This document shows positions 282 to 59,882 of a DNA stretch of 64,000 nt, piece after piece (position 1 is the first letter of the stretch; each line of letters opens with the position of its first letter). Source of the DNA: an uncultured Candidatus Saccharibacteria bacterium (GTDB lineage: Bacteria > Patescibacteriota > Minisyncoccia > Phycocordibacterales > GWA1-40-21); contig CAZSCE010000001.1 of assembly GCA_964605355.1 (NCBI GenBank), forward strand, positions 103 through 64,102, written 5' to 3'. The translations under genes and the position numbers were made by a program. Below the pieces are notes generated by a model, which worked only from the letters and a program-made list of their open reading frames with translations, did not search any database and was not told where the DNA came from.

Positions 282-2885
282 TTATCTCTTCCGTAGATGC
301 TTCTTTAAATAATGCCCGGTGTATGATTTGGCATTATTGGCAATATCCTCCGGCGTACCTTTAGCCACCACCTCTCCGCCTTTATCCCCTCCTTCTGGAC
401 CAATATCAATCACATAGTCCGCAGATTTTATTATATCCATATTATGCTCAATAATCATGACCGAGTTTCCATGATCCACTAATCTATTAATTATTTCTAT
501 TAACTTTTTTACATCTTCATAATGCAAACCAATGGTGGGCTCATCTAAAAGATAAACAGTTTTTTGTAAATGCGGTTTATAAAGCTCGGAAGCAATTTTT
601 ACACGCTGAGCTTCTCCACCGGAAAGTGTAGTGGCGCTCTGACCTAATTTTAAATAACCAAGGCCCACATCTTGTAGTGTTTTTAATCTGTCATAAATAG
701 CTGGCAAATCTTCAAAGAAAGGAATGGCTTCCTCCACCGTCATTTCTAAAATCTCATGGATATTTTTCTTCTTATATTTTATTTCCAAAGTCTCCTTGGT
801 AAATCTTTTACCATTACATACATCACAGGGCACATATACAGTAGGCAAGAAATGCATTTCCACTTCTATCACCCCATTACCTTCACAAGCTTCACACCGC
901 CCTCCAGCCACATTAAATGAGAAGCGGTTAGCCTTCCAGCCACGCGCTTTGGCCTCAATACTCATAGCAAACATATCCCTAATATGTGACCAGGCGCCGG
1001 TATAGGTGGCGGGGTTTGACCGTGGTGTGCGCCCAATTGGTGACTGATCTATCAGAATAACCCGGCTAACATATTCTGTACCCGTAAAACTTTTACAATT
1101 ATAAACTTCATTTGTGCGGTGACGCTTGGTAAATCTGGCATTTAAATTTTTATCAATAATTTCATAGACAAAGGAAGATTTTCCCGATCCAGATACTCCG
1201 GTAACACAGACCAACTTGCCAAGTGGCACATCAATATTTAGATTTTTTATATTAAATACATTTCCCCCGCGGATTTTTAAGGAGCCTTTATCCGTCTGCC
1301 TTCTTTTTTCTGGGACCGGAATTACTTTATCTCCGCGTAAATAATCCAAGGTAACAGATTCTGAGGGATTAGTTTTATCTGTTAATAATTTATCCAGATA
1401 ACCAGATACCACAATTTCTCCGCCATGCACACCAGCGCCGGGGCCAATATCCACAATATAATCAGAAGAATAGATAGTGTCTTCATCATGCTCTACCACA
1501 ATTATGGTATTACCCAAATCACGCAGTTCCGTCAGGGTTTTAATCAAACGGTCATTATCACGGGAATGTAAACCAATAGTTGGCTCATCCAGAACATACA
1601 GCGCGCCTACCAAGCCAGAGCCCAGCTGTGACGCCAGCCTAATTCTCTGCGCCTCACCTCCAGATAGGGTGTGTGCCCGCCTGTTTAACGAAAGATATTC
1701 AATACCCACATCCATCATAAACTTTAACCGATCATCAATCTCTTTGATAACTACTGTACATATTTCTTTTTCTACCTCAGTTAATTTTATATTATCAAAA
1801 AAAGTTTTAGCATCCGTAATAGATAGTGCGGTGAGAGCCACAATACTCTTACCATTGAGGAGTACATGAAGAGCCTCTTCTCGTAAACGAGCACCATTAC
1901 AAATATCACAATCCTCTTCACCAAAAAATTGCTTTGTCCCTAAACCATTACATTCCGGACAGGCACCATAAGGTGAATTAAAGGAAAATAACCTGGGCTC
2001 AATTTCCGGATAAGAATAACCATCATAAGGGCACATAAATTTTACTGACATCATTTTTTCCTCTCCATCTGTTTCAATTTTTAACAAGCCCTTACTCTCA
2101 TCAATAGCTTTTTCAATAGCTTCACTCAGGCGCTCGCGGGCCGGACCCTTTTTATCCTTATGCTTAAATTCACTAACATAAAACTCATCCACCAGAACAT
2201 CAATATTATGTTTCTTCGTTTTAGATAAAATAATCTGATCACGAAGCTTTTTCATCACGCCATCTATTTTGACCCACTCAAAACCCTTACCCAATAAATC
2301 ATAAAGTAATTGATAATATTCCCCTTTTCTACCCACTACTACCGGAGAAAATATTTTTACTTTTACATCATCATAAGGTACACCCAAAACTACTTTTTCT
2401 TTTTTGGAAACATCTGTAGTAGTCACTGATTTTATAATTGTTTCTAAAATTTCCTCATTGGAAAGTTTCTTAATTTCCCTATTACAAACCAAACAGTGTG
2501 GACGGCCAATACGGGCATAAATTATACGCAAATAATCATAAATCTCCGTAATGGTAGCCACCGTGGAGCGGGGGTTATTTGAGCGGGACTTCTGATCAAT
2601 AGAAATAGCGGGAGAAAGCCCAATTATTTCATCCACATCCGGTTTCTGCATCTGACGTAAAAATTGACGGGCGTAGGAGGAAAGTGACTCTATATAGCGC
2701 CTCTGACCTTCCGCAAAAATAGTATCAAACGCCAAAGAGCTCTTACCGGAGCCGGATAGGCCAGTAAAAGCAATCATTTTATTTCTGGGCATCTCCACGG
2801 ACACATTTTTCAAATTGTGCGTGCGGGCGCCTCTTATAATGATTTTCTCATCCCCCGTATGAAATTTTTCTTTTTGATTCTTCAT
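282..2885 (-). CDS. uvrA: excinuclease ABC subunit A
   Basis: N-terminal ...IIIRGARTHNLKNVSVEMPRNKMIAFTGLSGSGKSSLAFDTIFAEGQRRYIESLSSYARQFL is the canonical UvrA start. Two ABC ATPase modules (GLSGSGKSS, GVSGSGKSS), zinc-finger CxxC pairs and LSGGEAQR signature motifs are present. Confidence 0.95.
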   Translation of the reverse strand: MKNQKEKFHTGDEKIIIRGARTHNLKNVSVEMPRNKMIAFTGLSGSGKSSLAFDTIFAEGQRRYIESLSSYARQFLRQMQKPDVDEIIGLSPAISIDQKSRSNNPRSTVATITEIYDYLRIIYARIGRPHCLVCNREIKKLSNEEILETIIKSVTTTDVSKKEKVVLGVPYDDVKVKIFSPVVVGRKGEYYQLLYDLLGKGFEWVKIDGVMKKLRDQIILSKTKKHNIDVLVDEFYVSEFKHKDKKGPARERLSEAIEKAIDESKGLLKIETDGEEKMMSVKFMCPYDGYSYPEIEPRLFSFNSPYGACPECNGLGTKQFFGEEDCDICNGARLREEALHVLLNGKSIVALTALSITDAKTFFDNIKLTEVEKEICTVVIKEIDDRLKFMMDVGIEYLSLNRRAHTLSGGEAQRIRLASQLGSGLVGALYVLDEPTIGLHSRDNDRLIKTLTELRDLGNTIIVVEHDEDTIYSSDYIVDIGPGAGVHGGEIVVSGYLDKLLTDKTNPSESVTLDYLRGDKVIPVPEKRRQTDKGSLKIRGGNVFNIKNLNIDVPLGKLVCVTGVSGSGKSSFVYEIIDKNLNARFTKRHRTNEVYNCKSFTGTEYVSRVILIDQSPIGRTPRSNPATYTGAWSHIRDMFAMSIEAKARGWKANRFSFNVAGGRCEACEGNGVIEVEMHFLPTVYVPCDVCNGKRFTKETLEIKYKKKNIHEILEMTVEEAIPFFEDLPAIYDRLKTLQDVGLGYLKLGQSATTLSGGEAQRVKIASELYKPHLQKTVYLLDEPTIGLHYEDVKKLIEIINRLVDHGNSVMIIEHNMDIIKSADYVIDIGPEGGDKGGEVVAKGTPEDIANNAKSYTGHYLKKHLRKR

Positions 2886-23759: not shown

Positions 23760-23889
23760 AAGATAAGGAGGTTATCGAAGGTCTATTTAGCTAGAATACT
23801 CTAACTTGACAAAACACAATCTTATATTATATACTATAGTCTGGTCTTTAACGTAAACGTAGTATAAACTTCAAAAAATAGGGGGAGAC

Positions 23890-24126
23890 GTGAGTGGATA
23901 TGAACAGCTGGCTCATGAAGCAATGGAGCTTGTAAGAACAGGCGGGTTTTCTCACGAGGTGGCAGCAAAAATGATCTGTCGGTTGAAAGAGATTGTACCA
24001 AGGAATGGTCCCAAGAAGGTATTGAAAGAAATGGAGATACTGTTAAGGGGCCCGGCTCATCCAAGGACAAATCTACGGCAGGAGTCTATTAACCATCAAC
24101 TCCAAAGGGTTGATATATACGGCTAG
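23890..24126 (+). CDS. hypothetical small protein on a G+C-elevated cassette with its own promoter, GTG start and terminator
   Basis: TTGACA (23806..23811), an 18-nt spacer, TATACT (23830..23835), an AGGGGGAGA RBS 4 nt before the GTG at 23890, then an intrinsic terminator. Base composition is visibly richer in G+C than the flanks. Confidence 0.4.
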   Translation: MSGYEQLAHEAMELVRTGGFSHEVAAKMICRLKEIVPRNGPKKVLKEMEILLRGPAHPRTNLRQESINHQLQRVDIYG

Positions 24127-24210: not shown

Positions 24211-24283
24211 GGCCCTATCGTCTATCGGTTAGGACGGAGCCTTCTCAAGGCTCAAAGCGCGGTTCGATTCCGCGTAGGGTCAC
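24211..24283 (+). tRNA. tRNA-Glu (anticodon CTC)
   Basis: Manual cloverleaf: acceptor GGCCCTA/TAGGGTC, U8, D-arm GTCT-ATCGGTTA-GGAC, anticodon arm GAGCC-TTCTCAA-GGCTC (anticodon CTC at 34-36, U33, A37), a 4-nt variable loop, T-arm CGCGG-TTCGATT-CCGCG and discriminator A. CCA is not encoded. Confidence 0.75.
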
Positions 24284-56436: not shown

Positions 56437-56492
56437 AATTTTCTCGGCCGAAATTTACTAATTTCGGCACGAATTTTACGCTTAAAATTCGG

Positions 56493-56563
56493 CTGGGGGA
56501 TTTGGAATCGAACCAAAATAAACGGATCCAAAATCCGTTGTCCTACCTTTAGACGATCCCCCA
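56493..56563 (-). tRNA. tRNA-Gln (anticodon TTG)
   Basis: Manual cloverleaf on the minus strand: acceptor TGGGGGA/TCCCCCA (U1-A72), U8, D-arm GTCT-AAAGGTA-GGAC, anticodon arm ACGGA-TTTTGGA-TCCGT (U33, anticodon TTG), variable loop TTAT, T-arm TTTGG-TTCGATT-CCAAA and discriminator G. Confidence 0.7.
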
Positions 56564-57244
56564 ATATTTATTTATACCCCTTATCCAACCCGTCACTTGA
56601 CGGTTCAAGGACGAGCTCCTATATACTTTAACTCTTAATTGGCCATTATACAAGTCCCCAATATTTTTTCTTTTGGTATTTATTTTGTTTCTCTTAAAAT
56701 ATACAGTCTTAAAATAACTGATTGGTAAACCAGTCTTCTGTGACCAAAATTTTTGAAAACGTCCAACTTCATCATGAAAAATATCGTGGGTATAAATTTC
56801 ACAACCAATTTCTTCTTTTTTAACACCAACAATCTCAGTTAACCATTTTAAAAATAAAATAATCATTTCTGGATCAGAATTAGAGAAATTTATACCAGAC
56901 CCAGGACGTCCTTCCTTCTCCTTTGACCCCTCCGCCCAATATAAGGCAGTGCCAATAAGCCATAACTCTCTTTTTGATAACTTTCCAATTTCACCCTCGG
57001 CTAAATTAAATATTTTATTTGATCTTTCAATTCTTTGGCGTCTTTTAGCCTGACCACCACGCAGTGAAGCCAGCCTTCTCTTTTCAGTAAAAAATTGTTT
57101 GACTTCCTTGACCATACCAACAGAGCGAAGCCATTCAGAAAGAGTAGATTTTGCCACAGGAACAATCTTCATTATTTCAGAATAAGTTTTCCCTTCTTTT
57201 CTTAGGGCTACCGCTTTATTTCTTAATTCAATTTTCACGAACAT
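56549..57244 (-). CDS. HTH-containing LAGLIDADG-like (single-motif) endonuclease-like protein whose 3' end overlaps tRNA-Gln
   Basis: N-terminal HTH (KAVALRKEGKTYSEIMKIVPVAKSTLSEWL). Then LIGTALYWAEGSKEK (the LAGLIDADG-type L-x-G-x-x-x-x-a-E/D-G-s box) followed by DPEMIILFLKWLTEI. The last 5 codons are encoded by the 5' acceptor half of the tRNA. Confidence 0.4.
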   Translation of the reverse strand: MFVKIELRNKAVALRKEGKTYSEIMKIVPVAKSTLSEWLRSVGMVKEVKQFFTEKRRLASLRGGQAKRRQRIERSNKIFNLAEGEIGKLSKRELWLIGTALYWAEGSKEKEGRPGSGINFSNSDPEMIILFLKWLTEIVGVKKEEIGCEIYTHDIFHDEVGRFQKFWSQKTGLPISYFKTVYFKRNKINTKRKNIGDLYNGQLRVKVYRSSSLNRQVTGWIRGINKYWGIV

Positions 57245-57326: not shown

Positions 57327-58367
57327 TTATGACAGGGGTGGTTTAATAATCTTCCCCAACACTAACTCCAGAACCATCTCCGGCAGGTAAGCGTGGGAGA
57401 CTAAATCATAGTGGGATAATAGGGTGAGAAGGGTGTCAGAATTAATGGAAGATGGGGTTTGGGCGGAGAGAGATTTCAAGAAATTAAAATCTGTATCCGT
57501 CATTTCTTCCTTTAACTTTTCTTCTGATGATTTTAAAGTGCGGAGCAGTAATACGGCGCGGATTTTATGTAAAACCAGTTTAAAAAATAAAAGCAAATCA
57601 ATATTAGCCTCCGTGGCGGCAGAAACAGCGGAGAGGCCTAATTCTAAATTATTATCGGCAATCGCCCGAATAAAATCATTTACCAACTCCCCTTTTGGCG
57701 CCCCAGTGACCAGCACTACTTCATCTAGAGAAATCTTTTTATCTTTTGATGAACCCATCACTTTTTGTAAAATACTCTGGGCATCACGGAAAGAACCATC
57801 ACCCAGCAAGGCCACCAAATCAGCCGAGGCCGGCTCTAAAATAAAACCTTCTTTTTTAGCAATAGCAGTCACCACATCTTTCAAAACTTTCTGCGTTGGC
57901 TTTTTAAAGGAAAAAGTTTGGCAACGAGAAATAACGGTTTCCGGAATTTTCTCCGCCTCCGTGGTAGCCATAATAAAAATCACATGGGCTGGTGGCTCCT
58001 CCAGGGTTTTTAGCAAAGCGTTCCAGGCGGATTTTGAGAGCATATGGGCTTCATCTAAAATGTATACTTTGTATTTTGATTCAAAGGGAATGGTATTTAC
58101 ACTTTCATTTAAAGCCCGGATCTCATCCACACCATTATTAGAAGCGGCATCTATTTCTGTAATGTCATTGGCACTGGTCCCTATTTCATGAGCAAAGATT
58201 CTGGCTACGGAAGTTTTCCCTGTACCGCGGCTGCCGGAAAAAATATAAGCGTGAGCCAGGCGCTCCAGCTCAATAGAAGATTGTAAAACTTTTACAATAT
58301 GATCCTGACCCAAAACTTCTTTAAAATTTTGTGGACGGTATTTCCGATATAATGCGGTATCTGACAT
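57327..58367 (-). CDS. dnaX: DNA polymerase III gamma/tau subunit (short form)
   Basis: ALYRKYRPQNFKEVLGQDHIV...FSGSRGTGKTSVARIFA, YILDEAHMLS, ISRCQ. The start is set at the internal Met (MSDTALYRKYRP), which lies 6 nt after a TATACT box, so the mRNA is leaderless. Confidence 0.9.
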   Translation of the reverse strand: MSDTALYRKYRPQNFKEVLGQDHIVKVLQSSIELERLAHAYIFSGSRGTGKTSVARIFAHEIGTSANDITEIDAASNNGVDEIRALNESVNTIPFESKYKVYILDEAHMLSKSAWNALLKTLEEPPAHVIFIMATTEAEKIPETVISRCQTFSFKKPTQKVLKDVVTAIAKKEGFILEPASADLVALLGDGSFRDAQSILQKVMGSSKDKKISLDEVVLVTGAPKGELVNDFIRAIADNNLELGLSAVSAATEANIDLLLFFKLVLHKIRAVLLLRTLKSSEEKLKEEMTDTDFNFLKSLSAQTPSSINSDTLLTLLSHYDLVSHAYLPEMVLELVLGKIIKPPLS

Positions 58368-58407
58368 GAATGTAGTATAGCAGAAAAATAAAATAAAAAA
58401 ATACATG

Positions 58408-58446
58408 AAAAAAGGGCCGGCGCAGAAACTGGAAGCGCGCCGGCCC
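58408..58446 (-). terminator. strong intrinsic terminator GGGCCGGCGCGC-loop-GCGCCGGCCC plus a 6-U tail (minus strand), immediately upstream of the dnaX promoter
   Basis: 10-12-bp G+C stem with an A6 run on the plus strand. It ends the roughly 300-nt unassigned transcript region. Confidence 0.75.
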
Positions 58447-58727
58447 TCATACTCACCTACACGGATCCTTGTTGTGACTCACAACATTTTCCTTTCCCTT
58501 TGGGGGTTAAGGACTCTAATCTAGGATTTTGCTCCTCACTAGTGCTCGGGACTAGCTACATAGTGATTTGCGACATCTACGGCGTTTACCCCGCAGACCT
58601 AGATTGGATCACCTCCTTTCTTGTGTTATTGTCCCGCCCGCGAAAATTGTGAACTGTTCTGCTGTACAGTGTATTCCTATTTTTTAAAAATGAAAAGGGT
58701 AAATTAAAATAACCTGTGGATAAAGGT

Positions 58728-58856
58728 AAAAAGAAGCGGGCAGTTCCAGAAGGAACTGCCCGCGATCTAACCAATATGGTTTTCTGATGGACCTTCCATG
58801 GTCAACCCCCTTTCATAGCTGTGTACTGTTACTGCCACTCCTGTGGCGACCTTAGA
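58728..58856 (-). ncRNA. candidate small RNA of about 130 nt: consensus promoter, three hairpins, intrinsic terminator
   Basis: Promoter TTGACA (58885..58890, overlapping the dus stop), a 16-nt spacer, then TATACT (58863..58868). The terminator GCGGGCAGTTCC-agaa-GGAACTGCCCGC plus U-run lies at 58726..58763. Internal hairpins GCCAC-agga-GTGGC and GACC-atggaa-GGTC are present, as is a 10-codon micro-ORF with an AAGGGGG SD. Confidence 0.4.
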
Positions 58857-58886
58857 TATACAAGTATAGCATACCCACTAAAATTG

Positions 58887-59882
58887 TCAATCTTTTGGCA
58901 GATAGGTGGAAATTATGCCCTTTACCTCTTGATATGACTCTGTGGCCATCAGTTTTACGCGTAATTCCTTGGCCCCGTCAAAACCGTTAACATAAGCCTT
59001 ATAATGCTTCTTTAGCACGGAGAAATTCTTCTCCTTACCTAATAATTTTTCAAATAATTTAGTATGTTCTAGCAAAGCTTTTAATTTTTCCTTGGTAGTA
59101 ATCACTTTTTTCTTTTTATTAAAAAACCACGGGTTACCAAAAGCTCCCCGCCCCACCATTATCCCGTCACAGCCGGTTTCCCGCGCCCGCGCTTCACCCT
59201 CAGCAATACTTTTTATATCACCGTTTCCAATCACCAGTATTTTTTTTCCACTCGCCCGCACCAGCTCTACCACTTTTTTTACTTGGCTCCAATCAGCGGG
59301 CGGGTCAGACATTTCTTTCATGGTCCGGGCATGAATAGTGAGTGCAGAAATATCTTCCTTTATTATTTCACTAATCCAGGACTCAAGTTCCGTTTTTTTA
59401 CTAAAGCCAATTCTGGTTTTAACAGAAATTGGCATATTTTTATTTCCCTTCTTGGCCAGTTTTGCCCCGGCAATAGCGGCCCGGATTATCTCCCGTGCTA
59501 GGTCTGGATTTTTTATCAAAGCGGAACCGGCGCCTTGTTTGACCACGCTTTTATCCGGGCAACCCATATTTATATCCAGTCCATCAAAGCCCAGTTCCGC
59601 CACCAAGGTACTGGCCCGCTTTATATTTTCCGGCTTAGCGCCAAATATCTGTGCCACTATTAGCCGTTCCTTATTTGAGAATTTAAAATGATGCAAGAGT
59701 TTCTTTTTTCCCACGGAGCACAGTCCATCTGCCGACACAAATTCCGTCCACAACACATCTGGTTTACCATATTTAGCAAACATCCCGCGGAAAGCCACAT
59801 CCGTCACATCCGCCATGGGTGCCAAGCAAAAAAACGGCCGCCCCTTTATTTTATTCCAAAAATTAGCTTTCATAATTGGCAC
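58887..59882 (-). CDS. tRNA-dihydrouridine synthase
   Basis: FFCLAPMADVTDVAFRGMFAKYGKPDVLWTEFVSADGL is the Dus N-terminus. A TIM-barrel FMN-binding core is present, with catalytic Cys in NMGCP. Confidence 0.9.
   Translation of the reverse strand: MPIMKANFWNKIKGRPFFCLAPMADVTDVAFRGMFAKYGKPDVLWTEFVSADGLCSVGKKKLLHHFKFSNKERLIVAQIFGAKPENIKRASTLVAELGFDGLDINMGCPDKSVVKQGAGSALIKNPDLAREIIRAAIAGAKLAKKGNKNMPISVKTRIGFSKKTELESWISEIIKEDISALTIHARTMKEMSDPPADWSQVKKVVELVRASGKKILVIGNGDIKSIAEGEARARETGCDGIMVGRGAFGNPWFFNKKKKVITTKEKLKALLEHTKLFEKLLGKEKNFSVLKKHYKAYVNGFDGAKELRVKLMATESYQEVKGIISTYLPKD

Follow-up and report, generated by a model that had tools for sequence, protein, structure and literature searches.

The gap of about 480 nucleotides (nt) between dus and dnaX in the stretch of DNA examined here (64 kb, hereafter the window) contains two small accessory transcription units that lie on the dnaX strand, are bounded by terminators, and both recur in related genomes. 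The second of these, unit 2, carries an 18-nt tract, AGAAAGGAGGUGAUCCAA, that is a perfect complement of the 3′ tail of 16S rRNA. We favor the explanation, with a probability of roughly one-half, that unit 2 gives rise to an RNA that acts as a tight ligand of the 16S tail and the 30S ribosomal subunit, and that unit 1 is a shortened form of a small open reading frame (ORF) module found in relatives. This proposal draws on sequence comparison and on an analogy with the rre small mRNAs of alpha-proteobacteria. Coordinates (Table 1) refer to the minus strand unless marked (+).

The plus-strand 18-mer opposite the tract, TTGGATCACCTCCTTTCT at 58604-58621 (+), matches the 16S rRNA 3′ end exactly. 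The tail sequence used for comparison (UUGGAUCACCUCCUUUCU / GGAUCACCUCCUUUCU) is the near-universal bacterial consensus and is assumed for this host, whose own 16S 3′ end lies outside the window. An earlier note on this DNA had judged the identity to be beyond chance, and indeed only 0.07 sites per window are expected for an 18-mer with up to three mismatches. Other Watson–Crick runs to the tail within the window are 8–9 nt long (22 sites), and a single run located inside the greA coding sequence reaches 11 nt. The duplex between tract and tail is predicted at −31.8 kcal/mol, versus −12 kcal/mol for an ordinary Shine–Dalgarno (SD) interaction. As had been described, the tract is an extended SD sequence that lacks a start codon, in that no AUG, GUG, or UUG lies 5–10 nt after the GGAGG of unit 2. 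The five nucleotides at the 5′ end of the tract (AGAAA) are predicted to be unpaired (p 0.94–0.98), and its 3′ part to be partly paired in a helix. No second copy of the unit 2 element occurs within the window.

For comparison, we collected 160 loci from two collection scans with DnaX and added L161–L178 from twelve exact-protein look-ups, giving 178 loci in total. This sample covers dnaX neighborhoods and not copies elsewhere in the genomes of relatives. The closest DnaX relatives (50–88% identity) are found only in uncultured genomes of Patescibacteria, also called the candidate phyla radiation (CPR), with labels such as Paceibacterota, Taylorbacteria, Kaiserbacteria, and similar. When all loci were scanned for at least 14 consecutive pairs with UUGGAUCACCUCCUUUCU, counting G·U, seven Patescibacteria loci were recovered (L001, L082, L083, L086, L087, L090, and L107), whose DnaX proteins are 54% to 85% identical to that of the window. 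All seven sites lie 240–740 nt upstream of dnaX on the dnaX strand, and there are none elsewhere in ∼0.5 Mb. The L082 site is an ordinary extended SD with an ATG 9 nt downstream that opens a 56-codon ORF. The remaining six resemble the window in lacking AUG, GUG, and UUG at SD spacing. An AUCU is present 2–6 nt downstream of the tract in five of them, at the point where a long-range helix starts, whereas the sequence at this place in L001 is UUCU.

The tract is conserved in L083, where it reads CGAGAGGGGGUGAUCCAA and shares GG(A/G)GGUGAUCCAAUCUAGGUCUG with the window, and is looser in L086, L087, L090, L107, and L001. The predicted tail duplexes range from −25 to −32 kcal/mol, versus −12 kcal/mol for a typical SD. 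Across tract positions 2–16 of these six sequences, departures from perfect complementarity are limited to A-to-G (nine) and C-to-U (two), and all eleven keep G·U pairing with the tail. G-to-A and U-to-C changes, which are just as likely but would abolish pairing, are absent from these positions. Because of shared ancestry, these substitutions represent fewer than eleven independent events, and the pattern is supporting evidence rather than proof. The 16S-tail complement is the best-conserved part of unit 2 and the core of a looser family.

A different explanation for this conservation is that the purine tract serves the fold of its own RNA or some other partner (a protein, an RNA, or an internal switch resembling SD/anti-SD pairing) and that the match to 16S rRNA is incidental. 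Internal pairing can be drawn in several cases: The L086 tract pairs with a downstream AAUCUCCCU, the L087 and L001 tracts sit in a local hairpin (GAAAGGA-GGUGA-UCUUUUC), and the minimum-energy fold of the window RNA pairs part of GGAGG and GAUCC internally. However, these internal partners vary by genome, no covarying internal partner is apparent between the window and L083, and only the 16S tail can serve as a partner for every one of the seven sequences. The match also includes the non-SD segment GAUCCAA, and the substitutions are exclusively transitions that preserve pairing. We therefore regard an incidental match as unlikely.

Unit 2 is a folded RNA that is conserved in one relative. Both halves of the gap fold more stably than shuffled sequence (z = −4.2 and −4.6). 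Among the 178 loci there is one clear match to 58622-58460, the metagenome contig L083 (80% DnaX identity), with blastn giving 85% over 53 nt and nhmmer E = 5e-10. All 26 of the modeled pairs form in both sequences (52/52 cells); six of them differ at both positions and a further three differ by way of G·U, whereas only 29–44% of cells pair in a control in which partners were slid by 1–3 columns. Covariation in related genomes, which the earlier note had named as a check on the region, is thus present as compensatory pairs between the window and L083, and this support for the structure is clean, although it comes from two sequences only. The fold belongs to the minus-strand transcript, because its G·U pairs would become A·C if the opposite strand were transcribed. 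When a covariance model of the 5′ domain was built from the two sequences, the window scored 134 bits and L083 140 bits; over the collected loci the model recovers only L083, plus a weak match in L087 (E = 0.1).

The modeled 5′ domain consists of a closing helix (P1) and two hairpins (HP1 and HP2). The 3′ domain is composed of small hairpins, and homology to L083 is weaker there, with GGAUCC and UAGGUG present in both. The two intrinsic terminators reported previously are both in place, and terminator 2 was missed by our consensus scan because its loop is longer than 8 nt. Unit 2 is structured and probably noncoding, and it spans ∼215 nt or more and ends at terminator 2. An exact 20-mer scan of viral contigs and a blastn search of phages and plasmids returned no matches to it.

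Several other readings of the region were set aside. A role as a CsrA sponge was rejected since the GGA motifs are not kept in L083, as was the possibility that HP1 mimics 16S helix 45 (CUGCGG/CCGUAG), which L083 also does not keep. A resemblance to the RNase P CR-I element (AGUCCCG) has no P4 partner and no model hit. Use of the GUG within GGAGGUG as a start was rejected for having no spacing from the SD, and the ORF encoding MSQITM was rejected because it diverges in L083. Plus-strand ORFs of 39–50 codons are among the possible coding readings of this region.

Table 1. Features of the dus–dnaX region in the window and of micro-ORFs in related loci.
Feature	Coordinates	Strand	Remarks
dus	59882-58887	minus	Pfam Dus
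dus TGA stop	58889-58887	minus	inside −35 of unit 1 promoter
Unit 1	58890-58726	minus	
Unit 1 promoter TTGACA-N16-(TGc)TATACT	58863..58890	minus	11/12 match, TG before −10
Unit 1 5′ hairpin GCCAC-AGGA-GUGGC	58847-58834	minus	in the 5′ untranslated region
Box AGUAC	58827-58823	minus	after unit 1 5′ hairpin
SD AAAGGGGG	58813-58806	minus	N6 before micro-ORF AUG
Micro-ORF MEGPSENHIG	AUG 58799 to UAG 58767	minus	10 codons
Terminator 1 stem	58763-58736	minus	12 bp, 9 GC pairs, 4-nt loop UUCU
Terminator 1 tail UUCUUUUU	to 58726	minus	U-tract
Unit 2	58621-58408	minus	
Unit 2 18-mer tract	58604..58621	minus	perfect complement of 16S tail
Unit 2 folded 5′ domain	58518..58605	minus	alignment with L083, RNAalifold, covariance model
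P1, AAUCUAG/CUAGAUU	58605-58599 with 58524-58518	minus	closing helix
HP1	58598-58575	minus	UAAA loop
Junction AUGUCGCAA	between HP1 and HP2	minus	present in window and L083
HP2	58566-58536	minus	conserved loop UAGUCCCG
Junction GGAGCAAA	after HP2	minus	present in window and L083
Unit 2 3′ domain	58447..58517	minus	small hairpins
Hairpin UGUUGUGA-G-UCACAACA	58486-58470	minus	in unit 2 3′ domain
Terminator 2 stem GGGCCGGCGC / GCGCCGGCCC	58446-58414	minus	10-bp GC stem, 13-nt loop (fold)
Terminator 2 UUUUUU	58413-58408	minus	
dnaX extended −10 promoter TGcTATACT	58382-58374	minus	6 nt before ATG 58367-58365
dnaX	58367-57327	minus	start set by conservation
tRNA-Gln	56491-56563		ARAGORN
RAPP-like micro-ORF, L170	∼1587-1607		
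RAPP-like micro-ORF, L001	∼2085-2129		
RAPP-like micro-ORF, L173	∼1852-1893		
RAPP-like micro-ORF, L083	2726-2746		
RAPP-like micro-ORF, L094	354-380		
RAPP-like micro-ORF, L162	∼2186-2248		

A search of the whole window with Rfam at gathering scores identified two tRNAs only, and Rfam likewise assigned no family in 28 related loci. At E ≤ 10, the best match within 58250–59000 is to CC2171 (RF01867), a Caulobacter sRNA family, at 24.5 bits versus a gathering score of 75 (E 0.0046). The Rfam check that had been suggested for this region therefore leaves it without a known family that accounts for it. The CC2171 alignment covers only the 16-mer GAAAGGAGGUGAUCCA and the terminator, and a match to sbrA likewise rests on the 16-mer and the terminators.

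The 16-mer leads to a known system. The rreB, rreR, and other rre genes of alpha-proteobacteria encode small mRNAs of ∼165 nt, in which 16–17 nt complementary to the 16S 3′ end bring about binding to 30S subunits and translation stays weak (Hahn et al., RNA Biol 14:1353, PMC5711450). The 17-nt complement of rreB drives cosedimentation with 30S subunits in Bradyrhizobium, and the RNA is proposed to comprise a single-stranded seed plus a hairpin; the function of rre RNAs is unknown (PMC5711450, Discussion). Their ORF has 14–18 conserved codons and a GUG (or AUG) start whose first base is the last paired base (PMC5711450). The CC2171 consensus, …GAAAGGAGGUGAUCCAGUG…, fits this description, and CC2171 and rre appear to be one family.

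Unit 2 resembles these RNAs in being a short transcription unit with its own terminator, and in having a tract that pairs at 18 of 18 positions, compared with 16–17 nt for rre. The 16-mer is identical, including bases on both sides of AGGAGG, and in both RNAs the tract starts single-stranded and enters a helix toward its 3′ end, as predicted for unit 2. In contrast, unit 2 reads AUC-UAG where rre has GUG, and it has no ORF and no peptide shared among relatives. Its body is larger and has a three-way junction, and it is found next to dnaX in Patescibacteria, a different phylum, in a genome that seems to use SDs rarely. Because the phyla differ, the likeness is probably convergent. Unit 2 is said here, by analogy, to work like an rre RNA without being a member of the family, because it lacks an ORF or conserved peptide and its score with the model is far below threshold.

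The rre precedent also raises the possibility that unit 2 is a relic or unconventional small mRNA of this type, whose tiny ORF either has lost its start or uses a near-cognate AUC-UAG (58604-58599) or an AUG at 58576 (MSQITM) that HP1 would bring close to the SD. In both the window and L083, the codon at the place of the GUG in CC2171 and rre is AUC, which lies 7 nt after GGAGG and directly precedes UAG; AUG-UCG-CAA is conserved directly after HP1; and the extended SD of the same kind in L082 serves a real 56-codon ORF. However, AUC-UAG is uninformative because it lies inside a block that is identical in both homologs, and in the looser relatives the AUC(U) spacing is 7–12 nt, with frames of 0–50 codons and no common peptide. 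The MSQ frames diverge at once (6 versus 13 codons) because they cross covarying stems. Overall, substitutions track base-pairing and not codon positions, and descent from a messenger consequently strikes us as improbable.

If unit 2 is instead the 30S ligand that we favor, then its single-stranded 5′ purine tract would pair over up to 18 nt with the 16S 3′ tail. A 30S subunit held in this manner would be unable to start normal translation because no start codon falls in the P-site window. As a tight, nonproductive ligand, the RNA might dock its folded three-way-junction domain on the subunit or occupy the anti-SD tail; the rreB small mRNA of Bradyrhizobium behaves in this way. Unit 1 transcripts that pass terminator 1 may be the source of unit 2, for which no promoter was found, and a ribosome seated on the neighboring stop codon could modulate this passage. 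The sequence features, the homology, the covariation, the strand, and the substitution pattern are direct observations, from which we infer transcription, 30S binding, and any physiological role. A bolder proposal is that some Patescibacteria have a class of dnaX-adjacent noncoding RNAs that clamp the 16S tail and deliver a folded domain to the 30S platform, and are not vestigial messengers. This more specific claim is doubtful at present. Under it, the RNAs could be RNA-based regulators of the ribosome that serve, for example, in hibernation, in maturing or quality-checking the 16S 3′ end, or in switching between small ORFs led by an SD and leaderless housekeeping mRNAs.

Several observations weigh against a 30S ligand. 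The 3′ part of the tract, GAUCCAA, is predicted to be paired within the RNA. The whole fold has one clear homolog, and the other six loci share only the 5′ motif, AUCU, and the general layout. A promoter scan detected no sigma-70-like promoter for unit 2 between 58725 and 58622, and the candidates noted, such as TTTACC-N18-TAGGAA, are weak; in L087, TTGACA-N14-TGtTAGTCT precedes the motif by ∼20 nt. A small ORF with its own SD begins upstream in both L083 and L086 and continues across the motif, which misfits a simple free ligand. Unit 2 is absent from the closest relatives (L161, L162, L164, and L170, with DnaX 85–88% identical), and one relative has a spacer of 43 nt in total, so unit 2 is patchy and not essential, and the modules of this spacer are dispensable and turn over fast. 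This turnover is the main reason why our confidence in any single function is moderate and not high. Furthermore, ribosomes are in large excess over such RNAs. Finally, Hahn et al. observed no growth effect on overexpressing rreB (PMC5711450).

Fast turnover also argues against a housekeeping RNA. The gene for the signal recognition particle (SRP) RNA (ffs) is often located upstream of dnaX in other phyla, and the earlier note had pursued this RNA as a lead. A divergent SRP/4.5S, 6S, RNase P, or transfer-messenger RNA (tmRNA) at this position, or a plus-strand fragment of 16S rRNA, would fit the location and the exact 16S 3′ end on the plus strand, and unit 2 resembles ffs in being small, upstream of dnaX, and equipped with its own terminator. 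Yet unit 2 lacks the SRP helix-8 motif, and its hairpin loops are UAAA and UAGUCCCG rather than the SRP GGAA/AGCA motifs. The Rfam models for the four RNAs have no match at E ≤ 10 in 58250–59000, none at gathering score in the window or 20 relatives, and, for a further 8 loci, none at E ≤ 1. ARAGORN returned only tRNA-Gln and no tmRNA. The SRP lead is thus unsupported. With unit 2 missing from close relatives and a whole spacer as short as 43 nt, patchiness and dispensability set it apart from an SRP RNA as well. For the 16S fragment, the flanks of the 18-mer are unlike helix 45, and the G·U pairs put the fold on the minus strand. Both possibilities are highly improbable and, within the reach of these searches, refuted.

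If the 30S-ligand explanation is correct, then unit 2 would take rre-like RNAs with an extended anti-SD complement beyond alpha-proteobacteria for the first time, and would be the first of them without an ORF. A tract without an ORF would separate a ribosome-binding role from a coding one, which touches on the purpose of rre RNAs. A published precedent lessens the novelty, in that rreB and rreR already have a 16- to 17-nt complement and bind 30S subunits (PMC5711450). As far as sequence can tell, an extended-SD small RNA complementary to the 30S tail is a known but obscure kind, which is met here in the CPR and without an ORF. The unit 2 RNA would be small enough for 30S-binding or cryo-electron microscopy work on heterologous ribosomes with an identical tail, such as those of Bacillus subtilis.

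The translation signals of the surrounding genes give further context for the tract. On the minus strand, the gene order is dus, the gap, dnaX, an ORF of 231 amino acids (aa), and tRNA-Gln. Conservation of dnaX begins at ATG 58367, where the translation starts MSDTALYRKYRPQ. The longest dnaX ORF opens at 58406, adding MYFFILFFCYTTF and overlapping the U-tract of terminator 2, and DnaX relatives in the database (342–383 aa in total) have N-terminal extensions of differing length. The onset of conservation, together with the −10 box, indicates 58367 as the true start. The leaderless dnaX promoter noted previously behind terminator 2 is borne out by most of the relatives read, which have a TGnTATA(C/A)T-N6-ATG arrangement at dnaX. 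Given this shared extended −10 element followed by N6-ATG, a leaderless mRNA made from a promoter of its own is the most likely mode of dnaX expression. As a side observation, the 231-aa ORF downstream (56549-57244 (−)) has no Pfam hit on record; it holds the place that ybaB and recR usually take after dnaX in other bacteria.

A survey of start sites in the window agrees with this style of initiation. The survey was crude, in that the first ATG was taken as the start for 56 ORFs of at least 120 codons, and errors make the counts rough. An SD-like sequence precedes ∼5 of the 56, and a TAnnnT box lies 5–8 nt before the first ATG in ∼21 (for example, TGCTATAATGTGCCT-ATG). Strong SDs in the window are found mostly at small ORFs. 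The genome thus appears to be mostly SD-less or leaderless. In this reduced, uncultured lineage, most genes seem to be translated without SD pairing, and an SD-type interaction of 18 bp clearly falls outside routine initiation.

Unit 1 differs in character from unit 2. Its promoter, which had been reported to overlap the dus stop, matches the consensus at 11 of 12 positions, and only one other of this quality exists in the 64 kb, TTGACA-N18-TATACT at 23806-23835 (+). Downstream of that second promoter, which lies ∼400 nt upstream of a tRNA (24211-24282), a GTG at 23890 opens an SD-led ORF of 78 codons. Transcription of unit 1 is predicted to start near 58856, giving a predicted transcript of ∼130 nt. 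A homologous promoter, TTGAC(T/A)-N17-TGnTATACT, occupies the same place in L001, L004, L082–L084, L094, L161, L162, L164, L170, and L171. As read by eye, relatives carry a hairpin at the position of the unit 1 5′ hairpin whose sequence differs per genome and whose pairing is kept (CCGUCAC/GUGGCGG, ACGGUCC/GGACCGU, and GUUAGCAU/AUGCUAAC), followed by a box, AG(A/C)AGU(A/U)C, and then by an ATG with a strong SD. This promoter–hairpin–SD–ATG module is conserved in about a dozen relatives, and the ORFs behind it are short and variable.

In the window, the micro-ORF MEGPSENHIG is present behind its SD as described earlier, and its stop lies 3 nt before the terminator 1 stem. The nearest copy of unit 1 is in L083 (75% over promoter and leader), where the ORF encodes MARDGP; relative to it, the window micro-ORF is missing Arg-Asp and reads through the old stop position. 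Unit 1 is therefore best seen, from this comparison, as a shortened or degenerate copy of the small-ORF or leader module of relatives rather than as a classical noncoding RNA. The suggestion that the gap holds one or two unannotated small RNAs holds up in part: There are two units, of which unit 2 resembles a folded RNA and unit 1 a small mRNA or leader. Two other readings were discarded. An SRP-like interpretation of GACC-AUGGAA-GGUC in unit 1 is without model support, and these bases are explained as Gly-Pro codons. A 62-codon TTG ORF (58774-58586) was rejected because it runs through terminator 1.

The two units could also form one regulated operon or leader, starting at the unit 1 promoter, in which the micro-ORF is a leader peptide and a ribosome at its stop codon masks terminator 1. 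Read-through would then reach unit 2 and possibly influence dnaX. The lack of a separate unit 2 promoter is compatible with such an arrangement, as is the position of the stop (58767) next to the terminator stem (58763), and relatives have micro-ORFs at this locus with RAPP-like endings, a motif class of known arrest peptides (PMC10987492, PMC12992588). In L083, however, the units occur in the opposite order, each with its own terminator, which indicates that they are separable modules. In addition, MEGPSENHIG is without the critical Arg of the arrest motif, terminator 2 is strong, and dnaX has its own conserved extended −10 promoter and leaderless start. A single operon is accordingly quite unlikely.

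The relatives' micro-ORFs bear on this point. Arrest peptides and leader attenuators include SecM (RAGP), ApdA/ApdP (RAPP), and the RQH family (PMC10951233, PMC10987492, PMC12992588), and RAPP, RAGP, and RDGP are listed ribosome-arrest motifs (PMC10987492). The unit 1 ORFs of relatives are tiny and SD-led and carry RAPP, RDGP, or RDDP at the stop or within a few residues of it, and the stop of the window micro-ORF abuts a terminator. Unlike the known systems, peptides of the unit 1 type are far shorter and no Sec or YidC gene lies downstream; the window peptide has EGP and no Arg, and no R-(A/G/D)-(P/G)-P motif occurs near a stop in any frame of the window spacer.

Beyond the window, SD-led micro-ORFs with RAPP-like endings directly before or near the stop comprise MPRAPP, V..SRKARAPP, MRSSRAPPIILVS, M(HM)ARDGP, and ..CPRDDPL; MPRAPP is assigned to L170, ...ARAPP to L001, and MARDGP to both L083 and L094. 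The motif R[ADG][PGD]P falls within the last seven residues of 7 of 82 SD-led forward small ORFs, compared with 2 of 418 forward ORFs without an SD and 0 of 381 on the reverse strand, and the C-terminal motif was met in L170, L001, L083, L094, and L162. Because the Arg codons vary (AGA or CGN), these data point to selection at the level of the peptide. A protein database search with a 48-aa small ORF from L166 matched only itself.

The DnaA box reported in the gap, TTATCCACA, is present at 58723-58715, but it occurs at a chance level and without a cluster. Perfect copies in the window number three and are scattered, and sites with at most one mismatch number 29 versus 20 ± 4.6 expected. With these statistics, a single box at the locus, and a monotonic cumulative GC skew across the region, an origin of replication was rejected.

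The dus–dnaX spacer stands out as a hypervariable island that holds small ORFs and RNAs, the RAPP-like micro-ORFs among them, and that gene callers leave blank. Among genomes with DnaX 76–88% identical to that of the window, its length ranges from 43 nt (L176–L178) to about 2 kb (L004), with 260 nt in L005, 480 nt in the window, 620–670 nt in L161, L162, and L170, and 1.2 kb in L001. Promoters, small ORFs, structured RNAs, and terminators are shuffled as modules, nearly all of them unannotated, and the L166/L167 spacer carries an insertion sequence (IS) integrase (rve). A third conserved, apparently noncoding module is found upstream of dnaX at 2820-2910 of L083 and ∼1660-1765 of L173 (the same as in L174), and is absent from the window. 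Its pattern is GGCC...AAAGGAG...ACGUAGCAGCC...AGUGA(G/A)AA..ACUAA...UUGGCCUCGU, and Rfam gave nothing for this module but a weak L20_leader match (26 bits, E 0.38) that partly overlaps the L083 copy. The L004 spacer carries four irregularly spaced copies of a hairpin repeat, GTCGCGCACTGTCCATTGAAGCGCGAC and variants (∼1315, ∼2085, ∼2480, and ∼2560), which is not an array and resembles a repetitive extragenic palindrome (REP), a miniature inverted-repeat transposable element (MITE), or a lone sequence like a CRISPR repeat.

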